From sequence record OZ346222.1: a stretch of 64,000 nucleotides of DNA; one strand, 5' to 3'. Of this stretch, positions 18,370 through 64,000 are shown piece by piece. The DNA comes from a phage. The notes beneath the pieces are model-generated. The model saw only the letters and a list, made by a program, of their open reading frames with translations, made no database searches and was not told where the DNA came from. Both the position numbers and the translations under genes were made by a program. Every line of letters starts with the position of its first letter. Positions within the stretch are counted from its first letter, which is position 1.

Positions 18370-19851
18370 TTACTTAGCGTACTCGATTAATTCCACAGTT
18401 TTCCCAAAGCTCGGGATATAATTTTTATTATACCCCTCAGTGAGGACCCATAGAGTATCGTACTTTTTCCACTTGTTGTCAACAACCTTTTGTTCAAAGT
18501 TATGCTCAAAGTATAGGTCGGTCAGGACGATGACATCTTTTGCATTAGGTATGTTGGCATCCAGATACTCGAACACGCAAGCAGCTGTTGTGCCCCATGT
18601 TGAGTGGACCTCATAGTTGATCATCTCGTCTATGTTGCCGCGAGTGTATACTTTAACCTCTCCAACCTCAGTTGACCAACAGAACATTGTAACCTTAAAC
18701 TCTTTATACAGATTGCACAATCCGGTGATTTCATTGAACATTTTCTTTAAAGTTCTTTGAGAGATCGAGCCAGAAACGTCTAAAGCCACCACAATATCTA
18801 TAGTGTTTTCCGGATTACGACCAGGAACAATAACGTGCTGGTTCTTGTTTATAGCCCCAACTTTTCGCATTGTGCTGGTCAAAGACCCAGATCGGCGACC
18901 AGGTTTTCTGTAGGTCAGTTCGGCCTTTCTTTTAGACAACATACGTTGCTTAATGATGTCTATATAGTTGATTACAGGCTTACCTCTGTTCTTGACAAAC
19001 TCACGCACCGCCTCAGGGCAACGGCCTCCGGACGCTTGCATTGCTGCCTCCAGCATATCACCAGAGTCCTGCATGGCCTGATCTTTATCAGATTGGCTGA
19101 TTACAGGTTGTGGCTGATCATACCCCATAGCCTTTCCAAGATTATCACTGGTGCCACCGTTCCCACTCATGTGATCATCGGTTTGTCGCTTATCACTTTG
19201 AGAGTTCTCACCTTTACCGTTCTTACTTTTACCGTTATTCTGATCTCTTTGCTTATCAAGAACTGCATAAACGTTCTCAGCAATCCATCCATGAAACTTC
19301 ATGTCGCAGTAGCAGCTGGCTAAGAAGCCAAAAGGCTTACCTTTCATGAACGTAGTGCTTTTCCCCTTCGGGAAGAAAACACAAGGAGGTTTGCTAAAGT
19401 CAACCACAAGGCCTGTGTTGATAACGTGATCACAAGCAATATTGAACAGTTCCGGCTCAAAGCTTTTACCACGGACTAGGTGATCACAGATAATATGCCC
19501 CACCTCATGTGACAGAAGGAAGGCCACCTCTTTCACAGATTTTGGGGAATAGAAAACTTCAGCCATCTCAAACTGCTCGTCAGTTAGAGAAGCCTTAAGA
19601 ATAGCCTTGCGTTCATCAGCCAATCCCATAATGAACTCAGGACTGTAATAGATGCGTTTATGGTCGGTTGCCATGGTGGAGCACCATGTGTGGTTTTCTA
19701 CGAACTGCAACCCTGACAGTAGTGTGCCATAAAACGGCAGCTTTTCAAGGAGATACATACGTGCAGCCTGCAACATTCTCAGGGCATCATCTTTCTGCGA
19801 GGCAATGATTTCTGAACTTCTGCTATCCATTAAAACTCCAGAAGGGGCCAT
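18370..19851 (-). CDS. vWA-domain protein with N-terminal HExxH metallopeptidase-like domain
   Basis: 493 aa; HEVGHIICDH (HExxH) in the N-terminal half; VVALDVSGSI (DxSxS MIDAS motif) in the C-terminal half; architecture typical of VWA partners of MoxR-type ATPases. Confidence 0.65.
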   Translation of the reverse strand: MAPSGVLMDSRSSEIIASQKDDALRMLQAARMYLLEKLPFYGTLLSGLQFVENHTWCSTMATDHKRIYYSPEFIMGLADERKAILKASLTDEQFEMAEVFYSPKSVKEVAFLLSHEVGHIICDHLVRGKSFEPELFNIACDHVINTGLVVDFSKPPCVFFPKGKSTTFMKGKPFGFLASCYCDMKFHGWIAENVYAVLDKQRDQNNGKSKNGKGENSQSDKRQTDDHMSGNGGTSDNLGKAMGYDQPQPVISQSDKDQAMQDSGDMLEAAMQASGGRCPEAVREFVKNRGKPVINYIDIIKQRMLSKRKAELTYRKPGRRSGSLTSTMRKVGAINKNQHVIVPGRNPENTIDIVVALDVSGSISQRTLKKMFNEITGLCNLYKEFKVTMFCWSTEVGEVKVYTRGNIDEMINYEVHSTWGTTAACVFEYLDANIPNAKDVIVLTDLYFEHNFEQKVVDNKWKKYDTLWVLTEGYNKNYIPSFGKTVELIEYAK

Positions 19852-55763: not shown

Positions 55764-56009
55764 ATGAAAAGCAATAAAGGTTATAACGGTTACAAAAACA
55801 AAACTCATTGGAATGTAAGCCTTTGGATTAATAACGATGAGTCATTGTACCGGTTGGCCCAAGGCTTTATTAACGCCAATGCTAATCGTAATGATGCGGC
55901 GCGGGATATGATGCTTTTTCTGGAGCTAACCGGACAAGATAAGACCCTGGACGGCTTCAAGTACAGCACTACGGCGATCCGTGCCGCGATGGTTGGAATG
56001 AAACACTAA
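55764..56009 (+). CDS. small hypothetical protein
   Basis: Start at ATG after AAAGAAGAGG (track ORF from 55683 would cover the promoter). Confidence 0.5.
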   Translation: MKSNKGYNGYKNKTHWNVSLWINNDESLYRLAQGFINANANRNDAARDMMLFLELTGQDKTLDGFKYSTTAIRAAMVGMKH

Positions 56010-56200
56010 AAGCACATAGCTGCCTTACCCTGGGGCTGTGGTAGCGGCCCCATGAATAAGGTTACTAACAGAAGAGAATAAACACCATGAAACAGAAATT
56101 AATCGATGCAGTGATCTTGGTTATTGCCCTGGGTATTGGCCTGATTGCAACCATGTCTAATATGATCTTGTCTTCCAACGGTATCGGGTGAGGTTGGCAA

Positions 56201-56416
56201 ATGATCACTAACAAAACAGGCAAAACGGAATTTTTACGCAACTTACAGATCGGCAAGCCTGAGATCTGGTACTGCACTAAAACACCGCGTGACGAAATGA
56301 AAGACTTCACCGCCACGCTGCAACGGGTAAAGATATCTATCACGCAGAAAAAGGCCTTACTAGTGGTGGAAGGGGAGATCCCCCAAACCGTTGTTATAGT
56401 TGATCGTACAGCATAG
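56201..56416 (+). CDS. small hypothetical protein
   Basis: 71-aa ORF; weak RBS. Confidence 0.45.
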   Translation: MITNKTGKTEFLRNLQIGKPEIWYCTKTPRDEMKDFTATLQRVKISITQKKALLVVEGEIPQTVVIVDRTA

Positions 56417-56507
56417 TTTAATTTATACAGATACCTGAAAATTAACCAACAAAGCATAAACAGGCGGTTACCGCCGCCTTAAACGTAGCAGAAAGAGGAT
56501 AGGCACA

Positions 56508-56792
56508 ATGAAAAAGATGATCGCAGTGGTTACCCTGGTTGTTGGACTTAATGCGCCTGTAATGGCTAAAGAGCTGGCAAAAGAGGTTAATCTAACGGAT
56601 ATTCATGCCGTCAATCAAATCGGGGTTACTTATCGCTTATGCCTTGCCGCTAAAACTTTTAAGGACGGCACAACAGAGTACTACGGATTCGAGGGTATCC
56701 GGTGCGGTGAGCTTGCTCGCGACCTTAAGGAAGATCCAGACCTGGAGGATCTGCCCATAACCGTGAACGGGAAAACTTACGTGAACCGTTAA
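56508..56792 (+). CDS. small secreted/periplasmic protein
   Basis: 94 aa; N-terminal signal peptide MKKMIAVVTLVVGLNAPVMA; RBS AAAGAGGATAGG. Confidence 0.55.
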   Translation: MKKMIAVVTLVVGLNAPVMAKELAKEVNLTDIHAVNQIGVTYRLCLAAKTFKDGTTEYYGFEGIRCGELARDLKEDPDLEDLPITVNGKTYVNR

Positions 56793-56937
56793 CCATGAGA
56801 AAGATAATTATTACCATGGGGATCGTGGCGGCAATGTTGGCGATCTTTCCCTTTATGGTTAGGTATGTGCTGATTAATGTTGTCCTGGTAGTCAGCGATC
56901 TGGTGTTATATATTAACTCATTGTTTTAGGCGCGATA

Positions 56938-57129
56938 ATGACAGCGGAAGAAGTTAAAAAAGTACTGGCGGTACTGCGTTATCATAATCATTGCAAGGTG
57001 AAGAATGATCCTGATTATCTTGATTCATCCCTTGAAGAGGATACACTACAAGCCATAAGCAACATGCAAGAATTGCTTAAGCGTATGACAGAGAAAAACC
57101 GACCGGACTACATAGGGGGTAAAATATGA
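56938..57129 (+). CDS. small hypothetical protein
   Basis: 63-aa ORF. Confidence 0.45.
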   Translation: MTAEEVKKVLAVLRYHNHCKVKNDPDYLDSSLEEDTLQAISNMQELLKRMTEKNRPDYIGGKI

Positions 57130-57437
57130 TCGCTATTACGCCAACCGTTTTAGATTGGTATCGGCAACGCATAGCGCCTCCGCTGGCTATCTTCAAAGAT
57201 GCGGAAGCAAAACAACGCCGGATCTCAATACATGAGATCATCAACCTTAACGCTGGAGGCACACCATACCGCCCAGGACCTGGCCGTGAGATGGACAATA
57301 CATTGGCGATCCTGAAGATACGCCGTAAACGGTCCTCCCTTACGCTGGATTCATTACACACAATGCAGTCTCCGTTCCAGGTGACTGGGAAACGGATCGC
57401 CAGGTCCTGGACAAAGGCCAATGACCGGACCGTATAA
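57126..57437 (+). CDS. hypothetical basic protein
   Basis: 103 aa; ATGA overlap with upstream gene; preferred over the overlapping minus-strand ORF because it continues the co-directional coupled gene series. Confidence 0.45.
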   Translation: MIAITPTVLDWYRQRIAPPLAIFKDAEAKQRRISIHEIINLNAGGTPYRPGPGREMDNTLAILKIRRKRSSLTLDSLHTMQSPFQVTGKRIARSWTKANDRTV

Positions 57438-57522
57438 ATAAAAAGTGTTTTGGTACTGATTTTGGGGTTGACTTGTTCGGCCCCTTTTGCTATTCTTATT
57501 AAACGGGCGGCACTTGGGAACA

Positions 57523-57547
57523 GGGGGAGACAATCACCAGGCCTGCC
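57523..57547. repeat. conserved 23-nt GC-rich motif, copy B (inverted relative to copy A at about 47745)
   Basis: GGGGGAGACAATCACCAGGCCTGCC is the reverse complement of GGCAGGCC(C/T)GGTGATTGTCTCCC at about 47745. Confidence 0.55.
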
Positions 57548-57572
57548 TGTCATATAAGAACTATAAAAACCG

Positions 57573-57601
57573 TTGACATCTGCCAGGGGGTGGGGTAACA
57601 T
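57573..57601 (+). promoter_or_regulatory. sigma70-type promoter
   Basis: TTGACA-17 nt-TAACAT, then hairpin GGGCA...TGCCC, CA-rich spacer CACACAACAACC, RBS. Confidence 0.5.
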
Positions 57602-57655
57602 TTATCTTGAAGGGGCAAAGGTGCCCACACAACAACCAGAAGAGAGGAAAACACT

Positions 57656-57928
57656 ATGTCAAGCTGGATTAATCAAGAAGTCGAATCACGTTTTAATGCT
57701 ATTTGGGATCTCATCGAAAAAGAAGACGGCACATCAAGCCCCTACCTCAACAATTTGGAATTCCATTTTGTGGAAGCGATGAACGCAGAACATGATCACG
57801 AAGGTGGTGCGGACGAGTTCGCTAAAGGGTATGGCTTCAACAATGCCAACGAAATGATCGAGGCGGTTGTACTCCAGGCTGAGGAAGATTATCAATTAAA
57901 AACGCTTGAATTCTGCCGCCGCAAGTAA
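57656..57928 (+). CDS. hypothetical acidic protein
   Basis: 90 aa; RBS AGAGAGGAAAA. Confidence 0.55.
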   Translation: MSSWINQEVESRFNAIWDLIEKEDGTSSPYLNNLEFHFVEAMNAEHDHEGGADEFAKGYGFNNANEMIEAVVLQAEEDYQLKTLEFCRRK

Positions 57929-57988
57929 TAAGATAATGACACGGGCCGGGAGGCCCACTAATCAGAACCACACAAAGAGGTAAACATC

Positions 57989-58252
57989 ATGAAACGTCTT
58001 GATCAGCTTAAACTAGTTCAGTACATGGCCTACAAAGTTCTTGAAGTCCAAAAAGGTAGCAAAAAAGAGGTTTGCGAGAAAGCGTACAAGATCTTTACCC
58101 GTAAAAAAGATGATTGGATGTTACGCCAGACCAAAAAAGCCGATATCTTGGGGTACCTGGAAGAAGAGATCCGACTTGAAGAGCAAGAAGAGATCCGCCG
58201 CAGTGAGGCAGATTATCAGGCAGCCTGGGAAAACTGGATGAGCAACAAATAA
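57989..58252 (+). CDS. hypothetical protein
   Basis: 87 aa; leader hairpin GGGCC-GGGA-GGCCC, CA-rich spacer, RBS AAAGAGG. Confidence 0.55.
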   Translation: MKRLDQLKLVQYMAYKVLEVQKGSKKEVCEKAYKIFTRKKDDWMLRQTKKADILGYLEEEIRLEEQEEIRRSEADYQAAWENWMSNK

Positions 58253-58319
58253 TACAACAAGTTGCACGATCAGGGGGCAATAAAGCCCCTTGATCACATA
58301 AAAATTATGCTATCCTTGG

Positions 58320-58348
58320 TTGACAAGGATCGGCAGTTTTGCTATATT
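58320..58348 (+). promoter_or_regulatory. sigma70-type promoter
   Basis: TTGACA-17 nt-TATATT upstream of the 58397 gene. Confidence 0.5.
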
Positions 58349-58396
58349 CTTTTTGAAGGGAAGTTGTAAGAAAATTAACTAAGAGGTAAAAACACC

Positions 58397-58816
58397 ATGA
58401 ACATTAAATCTAATAATCCGGCATATAGCTTTGATAACGCTTTTTGTCACGGTCCGGCGGCGAAAGGATTCGAAATCGATGGTAAACTAATTATTGTCAA
58501 TGTTGACGGGGAAGAGGTTGCAGTATATCCGGTGGCAGACGTAAAAAGCCGTTTACAATGCCGCATGGATGTTACCGCCTATCAGCTTGATCCGGTCCGC
58601 ATAGTTGCCCTGGTCCTGGAAGAAGAAATTAAAGCCATGCACCATAGCAACAGATTTATTGGTGACGCGCAGGATAATATGAAAGTATGCCGCCATAAAG
58701 TTAATGAAGTGCTTAAAGAGTACGGCTATAAAGATCTTATGATCAAACGTGAGGAAAAATTCCGCTACCGTAACGACCTGGCAAATCGGATTTTTGAAAT
58801 ATACGAATCATTATAA
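58397..58816 (+). CDS. hypothetical protein
   Basis: 139 aa; RBS TAAGAGG; followed by terminator. Confidence 0.55.
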   Translation: MNIKSNNPAYSFDNAFCHGPAAKGFEIDGKLIIVNVDGEEVAVYPVADVKSRLQCRMDVTAYQLDPVRIVALVLEEEIKAMHHSNRFIGDAQDNMKVCRHKVNEVLKEYGYKDLMIKREEKFRYRNDLANRIFEIYESL

Positions 58817-58832
58817 TTTTTTAACTGAATTA

Positions 58833-58860
58833 TCAAGGGGCTTAGGCCCCTTTCTTTTTG
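58833..58860 (+). terminator. rho-independent terminator
   Basis: AGGGGC-TTAG-GCCCCT hairpin followed by TTCTTTTTG; closes the rightward small-gene block. Confidence 0.6.
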
Positions 58861-59299
58861 TCTGCTCTTCCCCCTACCATAAACGGCCCTACCTGGCAAG
58901 TGGAATAATTGACGAGCCATCAATCCCACACACTGTACAAATATACATGTAAAATAACTATTGCATAACCTTTCATTGTGTGGTAGCGGTGCTATTTTTT
59001 ACCTGTTTTCCTTCCAAAATTGCACGTAATGCAGCTATTGCACAAAATTTAACCTGATGCACATCTCCAATATCCTGTCAACAACTAAAAATCTTTATAA
59101 GTCATACACTTACACAGCATCGAAAGCGTGTTCTACGCGAAAAATCGAGTATAACTATAGCCGCCAGATCTCAGAATTCACGTACGCACGCCATTCTATA
59201 GCCTGCAAAGTATTTATTCCAACCACAGAATAACGGAATAGTCAATACCTGAATAAAATAATTATTCGTTTAAACTGCATAACATAAATCAGCTCAGGT

Positions 59300-60830
59300 G
59301 TCAACATTTTTCGTAAACAGTCTGAAATTGTCACTGTGAGTTATCATAAACAGAGAAATCTTTAGTCGTATAATGTTTACTGTACGTTACTATACTGACT
59401 GGAATCATTAGATGACTAATAGAAAGATAAGAAATAATTAACAATACAATTATTTTACCTGTAACAATAAGACAACTATGCAAACGAATGGCATGGCGCG
59501 ACGGAGTCGCGACATAATATAAAAGCAGTAACCATCACCCCCGTGATGGTTTGTCTGCAATCTATTAATCAGATCATAGTTGCCTTGTATTCAGTTAATC
59601 ATGACATAATAAGCAAGGCAACTATAGATCTGCTAATAGTTGCCCTGCTTTTATATTATGTCATATATTATTAACTTGTTAATTGTTAACTTGCTAATTG
59701 TTTTCATGCAAACGAATGTCATGGCTTATCCTATCTGTGTAAACAGTTAAGGTGTAAACTATCCAGGCGTAAACAGTCTATGCGGGAACAATCTATACGT
59801 GAACAGTGAAACATGAAATAATAACAGTCGTTATTGTGTCGAAAGTGTATAAGGTGTCAGACAAGTTTTTCTCCTCTTTGTCAAGTGCTGCATGAAAAAT
59901 TTACAAGCTTGTATGGTAGCATTTTTGCGGCCCTGTTTACATTCAGCGATGTATGTATAATCCTTGTTGTGTGGGCGTTTAGACGTCTAGACGGTCAGAA
60001 GTCTGCAGGTTAATACCTAATCTATCGGCTGCTAACTATATCCCACACAAATAGTAAGAAATATAATTGTTATGTGCGTAAACAGTAACTCATGTTATCA
60101 ATCCCTGTATGTATCGCCAGTGGTGCGCATAATGGGTATTATGTTAAATTGCCCGTAATGATAACTATTCTCACAATGATAGGTATTCTCATTCACTCCC
60201 ACAAGATAGGTTGCAAATGTTGTGCCACTGTGTGAACGGCCTAACCTATTAATTTGCCTCACTGCCTCGATATTTGAGAATTGTTATAAGAATGAGAAGT
60301 ATTCCCATTTCGTCCGCCTGGCAGCACTCCAGTCGCTACCGCTCATGACAGGGCAGAACTAGACCCTCTTCAGATATTTCTGGCTGACTCTTCAGGTCTG
60401 TGTGGGAAAAGCCAACCTCTCCGGCGGCGGGGAGGGGGTCAATTAAAAAAAATTACGTGGTGCATGAAGCGCTCTTCAGGTAAGGCATGTGTTATGGGAT
60501 GAAACCCTCTTCAGGCAATGATATTTGTGGGTGTGATATTTGCTGGAAAGCCAGATATGACGGGACTCCTGGCGGGGCAGGGGTAGTACAGACAGGGAAA
60601 ATATGGGGGATGTAGTTGGGGAAATTGATCAGACAGGTAGAGTATGGAATATGTTACAAGTATGTTAAATAGGGAGGATGAATATCTGCAGGATTTGTGT
60701 GTAAAATCAAAGACTTAAGTGGTGTTGTGGTATTTTCTATAAATAATTCAAGTTTAATAGGTAATATTTGTCTCTATCCACTTTGTGTGGTAAACAGATT
60801 CAGATGAAATTGGTTTACAAGTGTATACAT
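59300..60830. repeat. iteron-like dispersed repeats (GTAAACAG family) and palindromes in an ORF-free region
   Basis: At least 7 copies of (G)TAAACAG in both orientations, five within about 90 bp near 59.74-59.83 kb; 12-bp inverted repeat ATAGTTGCCTTG/CAAGGCAACTAT near 59.58-59.62 kb; TGCAAACGAATG(G/T)CATGGC twice. Confidence 0.55.
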
Positions 60831-61281
60831 AATATACAAATTAAAGATACAAGAAACCCCCCTCCCCCTTCGGCTACCATTCACCTTTTCCTCTGACTGG
60901 TACTTAAACACTTATTCAGACTCTTCAGGTTATCACCCATATATCATATGGCAGTGACTGGTGTCCTCCGGCCCCTCTTTCGTCACCCGTCCGCTTCGCC
61001 ATGCTAATGCCATAGCCAATGGTTCGGTTGTTCACTCTGTTCACTCAGGTGTATCTCCATACCCCTTCAAACCGAAGAGAACAGAAAACCCGAATTACTC
61101 GGTAAAAGAAAAGAGAAGAACTTAATTTTATCAGGATAGGCAAGAATGTCAAGGCATGACTGCTCACTAAACAAGCAAACAGTCATGTGTGGAAGGTAAG
61201 TGATTGTGGTGGTGGGAAATTTAGTTGAAAGATGTGTTATAGGTGCGCTTCCAGCACTTTGGCCGGGCAGCTAATTGTGTG

Positions 61282-61497
61282 TCAGTCCAGCGGTTCATCC
61301 TCTACTTCACTGAAATCAATGTTCATGGTCTCCTCCCAACCATCGATCTCAGCACAAGAGTGGAGTTCTTTAGGGTTTACTCCCAAAGCCTCAGCAACAG
61401 AGTCTATATTTAACACCTCTGGCAGGTATGATTCATCGAATTCAAGGTAAATCAGGCCACGAGTGTTGTCAGCTCCACCAAATATCTCTATCTTCAT
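61282..61497 (-). CDS. small hypothetical acidic protein
   Basis: 71-aa ORF, first of leftward small-gene block. Confidence 0.45.
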   Translation of the reverse strand: MKIEIFGGADNTRGLIYLEFDESYLPEVLNIDSVAEALGVNPKELHSCAEIDGWEETMNIDFSEVEDEPLD

Positions 61498-61618
61498 GAA
61501 ATCTCCTCTGGAAATGAGAGTGTGAACAGGGTTTTATACGTTCTAATGCACAGGAATTATACACGTTTGCCTCTTCAGGCCATGCTTTAGCATGAGGAAC
61601 CTGTGTGGGCTCGGTGCT

Positions 61619-61831
61619 TCATAGTCTACCACCTCTGAACTCTTCGTGCTCAGGCATAATAGAGAACCAGATATCTACGATGTCCTCCCACGTCAGGTCA
61701 TCAGCCTCAGGATCTGTCTGGGACGAAGATGAAGAGTCCTCAGAATCTAAGTTTTCCTCTTTAACTGGCTCATCCAAGGGACATATGGTCACTCCTTCGG
61801 ATGTCTCTTCAGATGCATGTGTGTTGATCAT
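61619..61831 (-). CDS. small hypothetical acidic protein
   Basis: 70 aa, Asp/Glu/Ser-rich; its ATG overlaps the stop of an upstream about 34-aa hydrophobic ORF. Confidence 0.45.
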   Translation of the reverse strand: MINTHASEETSEGVTICPLDEPVKEENLDSEDSSSSSQTDPEADDLTWEDIVDIWFSIMPEHEEFRGGRL

Positions 61832-62191
61832 GTTCCCCCCGTGAGTATTCCGGCAACAGCCGCTATGGAAGTAATGATCATCAGGATCACCACTAAAACT
61901 TCAGACAATGTTCTCATTGTGTATTCCATATTCTCCAAACTGTGTGTGGATACTATCACGGGAGCGGTAATGTGTCAACAGCAACGCCGCGAGGGTTTGG
62001 TTAAAATCCGAGCGTATGGTGATTTGGGTCAAAACGGACGTGCGTTCTCGCTACGCTCGAAAGAGAGACTTGTTTGTAGAAAGCTCTTAAACGCTCTGTA
62101 ACGAGATTATCTGTCCAAGGTATGCAATCGTGCACCAGATAAAGAAAAGGACGCCACAGAGCGTCCTAGGTGTCTTAAATTTGATATTTTG

Positions 62192-62503
62192 CTATACCCA
62201 TGAGGGCTTATCAAGGTTGGAGTAGCTGAAAGGTGTCAAAAGGTGACTGTCAAAATCCCTCAAACTATCCAAATCTTTTTCCTCGTCCTGACACCATCTG
62301 TGCCTACATTTATTGTTGTAGTGCATAGAATGCATAGCGTTCTGCAACTTAACAGGTACAAGTGATTCAGGAGTAGATAGTATTGTTGGGTATGCCAGAA
62401 TCACCTCAAACAGTGGAAACACATCGAAACTAAAGTCTATCTCTGCAGAGGTTGATGGCATATAGGAGTATTTAGCCGCCTTTGTAGACATAATCCACCT
62501 CAC
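62192..62503 (-). CDS. hypothetical protein
   Basis: 103-aa ORF. Confidence 0.4.
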   Translation of the reverse strand: MRWIMSTKAAKYSYMPSTSAEIDFSFDVFPLFEVILAYPTILSTPESLVPVKLQNAMHSMHYNNKCRHRWCQDEEKDLDSLRDFDSHLLTPFSYSNLDKPSWV

Positions 62504-62617
62504 ACAGGTTTGATAATACCTTTACCGAATAATTCTTCGTATCTAATCTTATCCGGATCCCACTCTTGGATAATTTCGAAGACAATATCCAACCCAGGGA
62601 TAATCACTTCTCCAGTG

Positions 62618-62827
62618 TCAAGTTTGGCAAGAACAAAACCAGAAGGCTGAATGGTTTCCCAGTTGTGCTTCATTGGAATAGAAGACCTCGAAAATATCGC
62701 CGACCTTTATCTGTTGATCAAGATGTTCAAGATTCTCTTTCATATAGACGCAGCGGATTTTTCGTGCAGGCCAGAGACCACCTGCATCACGTTCATTTAG
62801 CTCTTTTACAGTAATCGGTATACCCAT
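62618..62827 (-). CDS. small hypothetical protein
   Basis: 69-aa ORF. Confidence 0.45.
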   Translation of the reverse strand: MGIPITVKELNERDAGGLWPARKIRCVYMKENLEHLDQQIKVGDIFEVFYSNEAQLGNHSAFWFCSCQT

Positions 62828-62847
62828 CTCAAATCTCCTTCATAGAT

Positions 62848-62880
62848 AGTAAAAAGAGGGGCCCAAGCCCCCCTCTTTGT
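62848..62880 (-). terminator. rho-independent terminator (leftward)
   Basis: GC hairpin (AGAGGGGCCCAAGCCCCCCTCT on + strand) followed by a T-run on the minus strand, just downstream of the 62883..63188 gene. Confidence 0.45.
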
Positions 62881-62882
62881 CA

Positions 62883-63188
62883 TTATTCTACAGAGCGTTT
62901 GAACAGAATGTCTGCCTCAGACATGTGCTCAACCTCTTCTTCGATTTTAGCGCGACGTTTTTCAGCCTCATAGCGAATATCGAACTCGGTAGCCACCAGA
63001 GATTTGATGAATTTAGGAGAATACAGGTGATCCTGCTTCTCAACGAGAATGATATCCTTAATGGCATCTTTCAGATCTTTAATCTGAAGTTGGAGTTCTA
63101 CCAGTTCTTCGATTGTTTTGCGAAGGCGATCACGCTCTGCAGTGTCAGAAGGAAGAGAGGTGAACAGTTCAACTTTAGATTTAGCCAT
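62883..63188 (-). CDS. coiled-coil protein
   Basis: 101 aa; Lys/Glu-rich heptad pattern. Confidence 0.5.
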   Translation of the reverse strand: MAKSKVELFTSLPSDTAERDRLRKTIEELVELQLQIKDLKDAIKDIILVEKQDHLYSPKFIKSLVATEFDIRYEAEKRRAKIEEEVEHMSEADILFKRSVE

Positions 63189-63216
63189 AGTAAGAGTCTC
63201 CTTATGTTGTTTTAAA

Positions 63217-63534
63217 TTAACGTTCTACAAAAATACCGTTCAGTTCAATAACCAGGAATTTCTGGTCTTCACTATCGTCTCGTGCCAGCACCTCACAGAC
63301 GTATCGGTCATCCCCATCATCATCGCAGTCAAATACAAGACTGAGGACTTTATCATGGTAAACCTTCGCCACTACCGCCTCGTAAGTATTGCCGATTGTG
63401 AATCCAAGATAATCTCCGATGCATTTGACAACAACATGGTCTCCAGCATTTAAGTCAATCTTCGTCATTACTGCGCTCCTTGGGTAATAATACTGTATGT
63501 AAAACTTTAACCAGAGATGTGAATAACGCCCCAA
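63217..63534 (-). CDS. hypothetical protein
   Basis: 105-aa ORF. Confidence 0.5.
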   Translation of the reverse strand: MGRYSHLWLKFYIQYYYPRSAVMTKIDLNAGDHVVVKCIGDYLGFTIGNTYEAVVAKVYHDKVLSLVFDCDDDGDDRYVCEVLARDDSEDQKFLVIELNGIFVER

Positions 63535-63623
63535 AACACACCGATAGCGCTAAAACAGACAAGGCCATCATTAAAGCTTCAGTAAAATCAGTCATTCCTC
63601 ACCTCTTGTTAGTCACTGTACTA

Positions 63624-63887
63624 TCATTTATCCTTGTCGTCAAGAACTTTTTTAAATCTTTCAGGGATATCTCCCGTTCTTAGATAGTTCATGACCTCGC
63701 AAGGTTCCCACTTGAATTTCTTACAGAGCAGGGCGGCTGAGATTGTTTCATTGCGAAAAGAAAGGATATTAATATCCCACTCTGAGAACCCCAACTTCCG
63801 AAGGGTAGCTACAGAAATCCTCACCGCAACCCAGCAGCAAAAACATGCAACAAACGCCACTGCTACAACCCACATCAGGATGTTCAT
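63624..63887 (-). CDS. membrane-anchored small protein
   Basis: 87 aa; N-terminal hydrophobic span WVVAVAFVACFCCWVAV. Confidence 0.45.
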   Translation of the reverse strand: MNILMWVVAVAFVACFCCWVAVRISVATLRKLGFSEWDINILSFRNETISAALLCKKFKWEPCEVMNYLRTGDIPERFKKVLDDKDK

Positions 63888-64000
63888 ATAAGCACCTTAC
63901 TGAAATACAAGACACAGTGTTAAGGTTACTGACCAGCAAATAATTAACAGTGCCGTTGCAACCTTTGCAAGATTTATCATAGTGCCTCTAAGATTTCATA

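Follow-up and report, generated by a model that had tools for sequence, protein, structure and literature searches.

The window analysed here, a stretch of 64,000 nucleotides of phage DNA from record OZ346222.1, contains a gap of 2.4 kb (58853-61281) between two blocks of genes that both run into it. Within this gap lies a segment of 459 bp, at 59860-60318, which we interpret as the one copy of a direct terminal repeat (DTR). On this reading, to which we assign a probability of roughly 85%, the region is the concatemer junction, or genome terminus, of a Vequintavirus with a short DTR. The original prediction, made from the letters of the window, had singled out the gap as a region without open reading frames (ORFs), dense with iteron-like repeats and palindromes, and had proposed a replication origin or a genome terminus.

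On its left, the gap is bounded by an intrinsic terminator (58835-58852, plus strand; 7-bp G+C-rich stem, 4-nt loop and T-run) that closes the rightward gene block, and on its right by the first minus-strand gene (61282-61497). The reported switch in transcription direction is therefore present as a convergence of two gene blocks. The anatomy described below is based on an alignment of 15 relatives of the source phage, in which the terminator stem stays complementary while the sequences of both stem and loop vary. The claim that the gap is free of ORFs also held: the longest wholly internal ORFs encode 59 and 58 amino acids, and a 67-amino-acid ORF with a GTG start (58749-58952), which spans the left edge, begins inside the upstream gene. 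Codon periodicity of substitutions, measured in 150-nt windows over 58860-61259, was found nowhere and points to no hidden small gene; the adjacent gene at 61282-61497 displays it strongly (substitutions 30/6/7, p = 2.6e-6). The genes flanking the gap are small, genus-specific and without Pfam domains, and a flanking 71-amino-acid protein considered as a synteny anchor was dropped as genus-specific.

Region 58860-61230 matches 122 phage records at 90-96% identity, 99 of which cover at least 80% of it, and the matching records are almost all Escherichia Vequintavirus (rV5-like myoviruses). By sequence, the source phage is a member of this genus, an rV5-like Escherichia coli myovirus with 92-96% identity to about 100 phage records. 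In the matching records the gap is either unannotated or occupied by scattered short 'hypothetical proteins' that differ from one record to another. The rV5 genome paper shows it as a grey 'non-coding' box without ORFs and reports a skew change there that coincides with the change in transcription direction (PMC3606486). Nineteen records (MG0656xx) titled 'Campylobacter phage', with C. jejuni as the host, are 90-95% identical to the E. coli Vequintavirus region and are probably mislabelled or contaminant assemblies.

As a whole, the gap is more conserved than its left coding flank. The non-coding spacer at 58853-59477, in the right arm of the genome, has neither ORFs nor codon periodicity and is ~90-95% conserved, likewise above the coding flank on its left; C exceeds G on the plus strand at 58800-59250. 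Searches for other content returned no Rfam match for 56000-64000 at E ≤ 1, no tRNA or tmRNA within the window, only one weak G-quadruplex candidate, with long loops, and, in distant BLAST searches of three sub-regions, Vequintavirus matches only.

The probable terminal repeat and its cut sites

The position of the repeat comes from the records of relatives. In the HdK5 record, the first 459 nt are identical to the last 459 nt and map to window positions 60318-59860; Korf et al. described for this phage a 'short terminal redundancy of 458 bp' and assigned the ends to the positions at which the majority of reads broke off abruptly. The Aya record, from another laboratory, begins with GACAAGTTTTT, at window position 59860, and finishes with ...TGTCA (59859), and the bov11CS3 record begins with GGCGGACGAAAT, the reverse complement of 60318, and finishes with ...GCTGCCA (60319). 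The cut points in the EdH4, ECP2309 and YN3 records coincide with these. Independent records (HdK5, EdH4, Aya, bov11CS3, ECP2309 and YN3) agree on two nucleotides, as fixed, non-permuted ends. The window and about 100 records carry the repeat segment once, between two unique arms. From the HdK5 repeat and the cut points shared by Aya, bov11CS3, EdH4, ECP2309 and YN3, we therefore place the DTR at 59860-60318, present as a single copy in an assembly of circular or concatemer type.

The original prediction did not include this repeat, because a single-copy assembly cannot reveal one; the features that it stressed adjoin the repeat and lie outside it. Of its two proposals, the terminus is borne out by the genome ends of close relatives, which map inside the region, whereas the origin found no positive support.

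Conservation follows the same boundaries. The repeat measures 457-460 bp in all 15 aligned relatives, with 93-100% conservation, and the alignment switches from hypervariable to near-invariant exactly at both repeat boundaries: invariance starts at TGTCA|GACAAG on the left and stops at CGTCCGCC|TGGCA on the right. Hypervariable DNA is restricted to three places, a 15-bp tandem repeat at 59667-59702 and the segments 59730-59859 and 60319-60360, the latter two adjoining the repeat. Inside the repeat, three elements stand out. A terminal block at 59860-59906, which reads TTGTAAATTT...CTTGACAAAGAGGAGAAAAACTTGTC on the minus strand, aligns across Vequintavirus, Mydovirus, Seunavirus and the contigs L110, L106 and L131. 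A palindromic core, likewise shared across lineages, occupies 60123-60152 and reads ATTTAACATAAnACnnnTTATnCGCAC on the minus strand. The near-palindrome AATGA(T/G)A-N-TATTC(T/C)CA occurs three times, at 60157, 60175 and 60291 (60157-60307).

When read into the repeat, both cut sites share one motif, in inverted placement. The left site, TGTCA|GAC on the plus strand (59855-59862), is invariant in the 15 phages and puts the mature plus-strand 5' end at 59860; the right site, TGCCA|GGC on the minus strand (60316-60323), puts the mature minus-strand 5' end at 60318. The consensus TGYYARRC occurs within 58860-61281 only at these two sites, and the cut contexts in other lineages are TGCTA|GAC and TGCTA|AAC. 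Given the inverted placement, a nuclease that nicks the motif-bearing strand would make nicks on opposite strands, 459 bp apart. This layout fits staggered nicks followed by fill-in, the classical Watson/T7-type scheme proposed for duplication of a repeat.

On the terminus reading, virion DNA would be linear and not permuted, with the repeat at both ends, and replication (or the assembler) would join genomes through a single repeat copy, which is the form seen in the window. The junction would then run from right-arm unique DNA, through one 459-bp copy of the repeat, into left-arm unique DNA. Terminase would recognise the conserved repeat ends and would introduce one nick behind TGTCA on the plus strand (59859|59860) and another behind TGCCA on the minus strand (60319|60318). 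Each nick would leave a strand whose 5' end is the first base of the repeat, strand separation would leave 5' overhangs, and a DNA polymerase extending the free 3' ends would fill these in, providing each daughter genome with a full repeat. The arrays abutting the repeat, GTRAACAGT on the left and CTCTTCAGG on the right, would most likely serve as accessory protein-binding sites, while the terminator and the C-rich, G-poor flanks would exclude converging transcription from the junction.

A Pfam scan for terminase covered 10 ORFs, including seven from window 1-21883 and a small one near 58 kb, and did not find it; for 1-21500, 15 ORFs of at least 150 amino acids are listed. The same scan matched a protein of 690 amino acids with non-contractile-tail-sheath TIM-barrel and N-terminal domains (729-2801) and a DUF2201 metallopeptidase/VWA-like protein of 493 amino acids (18370-19851).

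The arrangement resembles that of T7 and T3, in which a short exact repeat is likewise present once at the junction, with short-repeat arrays directly abutting it. In the T7 junction, which we checked, the repeat is 160 bp long and is abutted by CCTAAAG arrays, densest at a spacing of 13 bp. The two junctions agree in layout without any similarity in sequence. The source phage also differs from T7 in being a 136-kb myovirus without an annotated phage RNA polymerase, in having end genes that point toward the ends, whereas T7 early genes read inward, and in the inverted motif shared by its cut sites, which T7 lacks.

Counterparts in sister genera and metagenomes

A comparable terminus has been described in Mydovirus. 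Klebsiella phage KPP-1 has a 514-bp repeat with about twofold read coverage and a PhageTerm call of 'T7 type' (PMC9862379), and we find this repeat at the same convergent, gene-poor site. The Mydovirus phage DP carries an annotated repeat_region of 514 bp, and the KP12 record shares the starting nucleotide of this repeat. In Seunavirus, PVP-SE1 has an unannotated gap of 2.2 kb between the converging genes 179 and 180. BLAST detected no overall DNA similarity between the region in these sister genera and that in Vequintavirus. Sensitive alignment recovered collinear blocks inside the repeat, namely the core (ATTTAACATAAnACnnnTTATnCGCAC) and the end (TTGTAAATTT...CTTGACA...TKGTY|TRRCA), separated by ~267-279 bp from core to repeat end in the three genera. 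Scanning metagenomes with the core pattern recovered the same end block in contigs L110, L106, L131, L107, L113, L123 and L136. A degenerate repeat-end pattern used on IMG/VR was set aside, as it returned mostly chance matches; one of its hits, L029, lies in coding DNA.

The repeats of HdK5 and EdH4 (458-459 bp) and those of the Mydovirus phages KPP-1 and DP (514 bp) combine homologous sequence with the same convergent position in mid-gap. Common to both genera are the core and the end of the repeat, as well as the TGYYA|RRC context. They differ in that the Mydovirus repeat is ~55 bp longer, in that Mydovirus has neither the GTRAACAGT array nor the ultra-conserved block described below, and in the flank on the repeat-start side, which spans ~330 bp in KPP-1 versus ~960 bp in Vequintavirus. 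In three genera, near-palindromes of the form TGA(T/G)AA-N3-TTATCA recur within the terminal repeat and in its surroundings (KPP-1, L006, 3847-4464; PVP-SE1, L084; window 60157-60307), and the recurrence of this family suggests, at the level of sequence, a conserved dimeric DNA-binding protein.

Two Seunavirus records, SalP219 and SEW_6S, seemed likewise to be cut in this region, but the overlaps of their ends (127 and 91 nt) were rejected as terminal repeats and attributed to the assembler. In both of these Salmonella phages (L085-L088) the overlap is k-mer-sized and the record ends at ...GTGTTATAGTGTC. The KPP-1 counterpart, GTGTTATTGTGTC, lies ~500 bp beyond the KPP-1 repeat; the two assemblies, which are independent, break at the same point.

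Sequences flanking the repeat

Directly to the right of the repeat lies the hypervariable segment 60319-60360, in which a 33-bp unit is duplicated in several relatives. It is followed by copies of CTCTTCAGG, a sequence found six times in the window and five times in the region, against 0.5 expected. The original prediction had counted six copies between 60.36 and 61.58 kb; the series at 60366-61579 is present and non-random, but consists of five exact copies and one CTCTTCAGA. The first copies lie ~50 bp to the right of the repeat, where four conserved CTCTTCAG(G) sites occupy 60366, 60388, 60472 and 60507 (60366-60520, plus strand). A 17-mer overlapping this series, GGCTGACTCTTCAGGTC (60382-60398), matches KPP-1 at 16 of its 17 positions, on the same side of the KPP-1 repeat. 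A general role of CTCTTCAGG as a -35/-30 promoter box was rejected, as the copy at 61571 is the only one upstream of a TATAAT and spacing elsewhere is inconsistent. The intergenic segment 61498-61618, upstream of the gene at 61282-61497, holds a further CTCTTCAGG...TGTGTGGG pair; its minus strand carries CCTGAAGAG 9 nt upstream of TATAAT, which could be a factor-dependent promoter.

Next comes a strongly skewed stretch (60400-60800), in which G accounts for 33-40% and C for 5-12% of the plus strand at the peak; the skew is opposite at 60800-61050. A leftward transcript of 60400-60800 would have much C and little G, as Rho loading (rut) sites do, and such flanks might insulate the junction from converging transcription in a Rho-dependent manner.

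Beyond the skewed stretch lies an ultra-conserved non-coding block of ~300 bp (60860-61184), in which 150 nt contain only 5-6 variable sites, compared with 32-50 in the neighbouring non-coding DNA. In the divergent contig L030, the block is 93-100% identical while the adjacent genes are 73-88% identical. It contains a predicted orphan sigma-70-type promoter on the minus strand (61125-61152), composed of TTGACA, a 16-nt spacer and TGATAAAAT, which matches 11 of 12 hexamer positions and includes the extended -10 TG. The predicted promoter points leftward at the repeat, with no gene downstream. Orphan promoters near the ends are also a feature of T7 (the leftward A0, phiOL and phiOR). The block has no homology in E. 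coli.

The right half of the region might alternatively be a non-coding RNA locus, in which the promoter at 61152-61125 (minus strand) would drive an untranslated regulator, or a primer or pausing signal for end processing. We regard this as unlikely, although several observations favour it. L030 retains both hexamers and the extended -10 TG, even though it has a rewritten spacer with 2 extra nucleotides; variability in the block is 7-8 times lower than in the neighbouring DNA; downstream there is no ORF preceded by a ribosome-binding site; and T7 has its leftward E. coli promoter A0 near the left end. RNA polymerase pausing at the T7 concatemer junction has moreover been said to start maturation (PMC3276506). 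Against an RNA, no Rfam family matches the block at E ≤ 1, and the block folds no better than shuffled sequences (z = -0.5 and -0.15). It is also genus-specific, the corresponding KPP-1 flank being only ~330 bp long, and its conservation could equally mean protein binding to DNA. A further idea, which we consider quite improbable, is that transcription of the ultra-conserved block toward the repeat by host RNA polymerase, starting at 61152-61125 (minus strand), or its arrest by Rho in the C-rich stretch at 60400-60800, is required for end processing or for the start of replication, with terminase nicking TGYYA|RRC on opposite strands. If true, the transcription-coupled maturation of the junction known from T7 would have a counterpart here that uses host polymerase.

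The left flank is dominated by a palindrome-rich module (59478-59725) enclosed between two direct repeats of 20 nt, ATGCAAACGAATG(G/T)CATGGC, at 59478 and 59706, a duplication that had been recognized correctly. The module holds an 18-bp perfect inverted repeat (59511-59528 / 59645-59662), described earlier as long-range although its arms are only 116 nt apart, and a 12-bp perfect inverted repeat (59576-59587 / 59614-59625), the spacer of which is 26 nt rather than the 24 nt first given. It further contains a hairpin (59530-59551) and the 15-bp tandem repeat at 59667-59702. In sliding-window RNA folding, this module alone beats shuffled sequences (z -5 to -7.7, both strands). The sequence ATAGTTGCC(T/C)TG occurs three times in 59576-59647, as two direct copies that enclose an inverted one; this middle copy is able to pair with the copy on either side, which yields alternative hairpins or else three binding sites. 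CAACTA/TAGTTG is 8-fold enriched in the region.

Relatives vary in this module. Phage FV3 (L010) lacks everything at 59498-59705 and retains exactly one copy of the 20-mer, ATGCAAACGAATGTCATGGC, which resembles the outcome of a natural deletion through recombination of the two 20-bp repeats; as FV3 is viable, the palindrome module is dispensable. An extra insert of ~45 bp after 59666 is present in rV5, Murica, HMD-6, phita32 and A51.2 (L009, L011, L013, L015 and L016) and consists of two hairpins, CACCCGAAGGGGTG and GGTGACC...GGTCACC. In rV5 alone, a further insert of 33 bp occupies the loop of the 12-bp inverted repeat.

Between the module and the repeat, an array of GT(A/G)AAC(A/T)(G/A)T units with a period of 15-16 bp runs along the plus strand at 59737-59810. 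The original prediction had placed five copies of (G)TAAACAG within about 90 bp; an array is indeed present, with 15-bp spacing, but only two of its units are exact and three are degenerate. The overall count of at least seven copies was confirmed, with TAAACAG occurring seven times in the region, including isolated (G)TAAACAG sites at 59313 and 59347. GTAAACAG is found seven times in the 64-kb window, six of them in the region, against 2.3 expected window-wide, and none of 100 shuffles reached seven. Relatives have 2-8 array units (≤2 mismatches), spaced at 15-16 bp or multiples of this. The array stops ~50 bp to the left of the repeat, and hypervariable short repeats of (T)GTGTC type (59811-59859, plus strand), which differ in copy number and sequence among the 15 phages, continue up to the invariant TGTCA outside the left cut.

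Such an array raises the possibility of an iteron-type origin, in which GTRAACAGT units would bind a phage initiator and AT-rich or palindromic DNA would melt; an origin of this kind could coexist with a terminus, and we consider it distinctly unlikely. It would account for the ~100-fold enrichment of GTAAACAG in the region, which also has additional single copies to the left and right of the repeat and within it, and for AT-rich tracts at 59400-59470 and 59640-59700. As in the lambda ori and P4 ori/crr, clustered short direct repeats lie beside AT-rich DNA, and GTGAACAG resembles the P4 type I iteron, TGTTCACC. The T7 promoters beside the terminal repeats are annotated phiOL and phiOR, and these are linked to secondary origins. 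Unlike the usual repeats of ~20 bp (17-22 bp) in helical phase, however, the array has a period of 15-16 bp and a core of 8-9 bp, and viable phages carry anywhere from 2 to 8 copies. It has no counterpart outside Vequintavirus, including Mydovirus and Seunavirus, which have the repeat. There is no exact DnaA box (TTATNCACA), with eight one-mismatch sites against ~3 expected, and no initiator gene is adjacent, given the lack of any ORF or coding signal in 58853-61281. The palindromic module, too, is deleted in FV3. Finally, the turns in GC skew track transcription direction, both in our own analysis and in that of rV5 (PMC3606486).

Weight of the evidence and implications

Several points count against the terminus reading. 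The ends of the source phage are inferred from relatives that are 86-96% identical. How the repeat starts of the genera align is ambiguous, as two alignments disagree. At the right boundary, rV5 alone reads GCC|AGGCAG, which gives TGCCT instead of TGCCA on the minus strand and is either a real variant or an error of the 3.6-fold Sanger sequence. The cut-site motif was defined in retrospect and shows no over-representation in the window (42 copies, 36 expected). As it is not rare genome-wide, it is insufficient alone, and the larger conserved context must supply specificity. The GTRAACAGT array is genus-specific and is therefore not a general requirement of the subfamily.

Two publications also favour a different form of packaging. 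The rV5 paper calls the genome circularly permuted (PMC3606486), and a paper from 2026 infers headful packaging for another Vequintavirus, BpE1AUH, from PhageTerm (PMC13211470). Under headful packaging the region would contain a pac site and ends would be scattered along the genome, which we judge very improbable. Like the cos and pac regions of lambda, P22 and SPP1, the region would combine terminase recognition and cleavage in non-coding DNA, but its ends are fixed and lie 459 bp apart with a duplicated repeat, rather than being 12-nt cohesive or permuted headful ends. The exact 459-nt terminal repeat of HdK5, the placing of ends at the same two nucleotides by three laboratories, and the doubled coverage and T7-type call for KPP-1 all argue against permutation. 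Moreover, the rV5 statement derives from 3.6-fold Sanger shotgun sequencing without end mapping, and the 2026 call was made on a mixed phage cocktail and hedged by its authors. Both are outweighed by the exact repeat and the shared fixed boundaries. An injection-stop or first-step-transfer signal of the T5 type, with repeats and palindromes close to one end acting to pause DNA entry, is suggested by a general resemblance to the non-coding segment of the T5 terminal repeat, rich in repeats and palindromes, but is scarcely credible: the repeat here is 459 bp and without genes, against ~10 kb with pre-early genes in T5, the palindromic module is dispensable, and transcription on both sides runs toward the ends, so that nothing would be expressed from a short first-transferred segment.

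A terminal repeat has already been reported for the genus, in one sentence, and the published papers give its length, not its anatomy. What is added here is modest, namely the anatomy of the junction, the end motifs shared across genera and the conserved promoter block; none of the results challenges current concepts. The terminus reading would fix the true ends for a group of therapeutic and typing coliphages that are isolated very commonly; in the founding paper and many of their records, the genome is taken as circularly permuted or is made to begin at an arbitrary position. With the 459-bp repeat and its borders known, records could be oriented consistently, the virion genome length would equal the assembly length plus 459 bp, and the long-noted 'non-coding box' of rV5 would be explained. 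Engineering would also gain defined targets in the region, among them packaging signals and sites for safe insertion. Together, the inverted cut-site motif and the ultra-conserved promoter block provide testable leads on the duplication of short terminal repeats, a process poorly understood even for T7.

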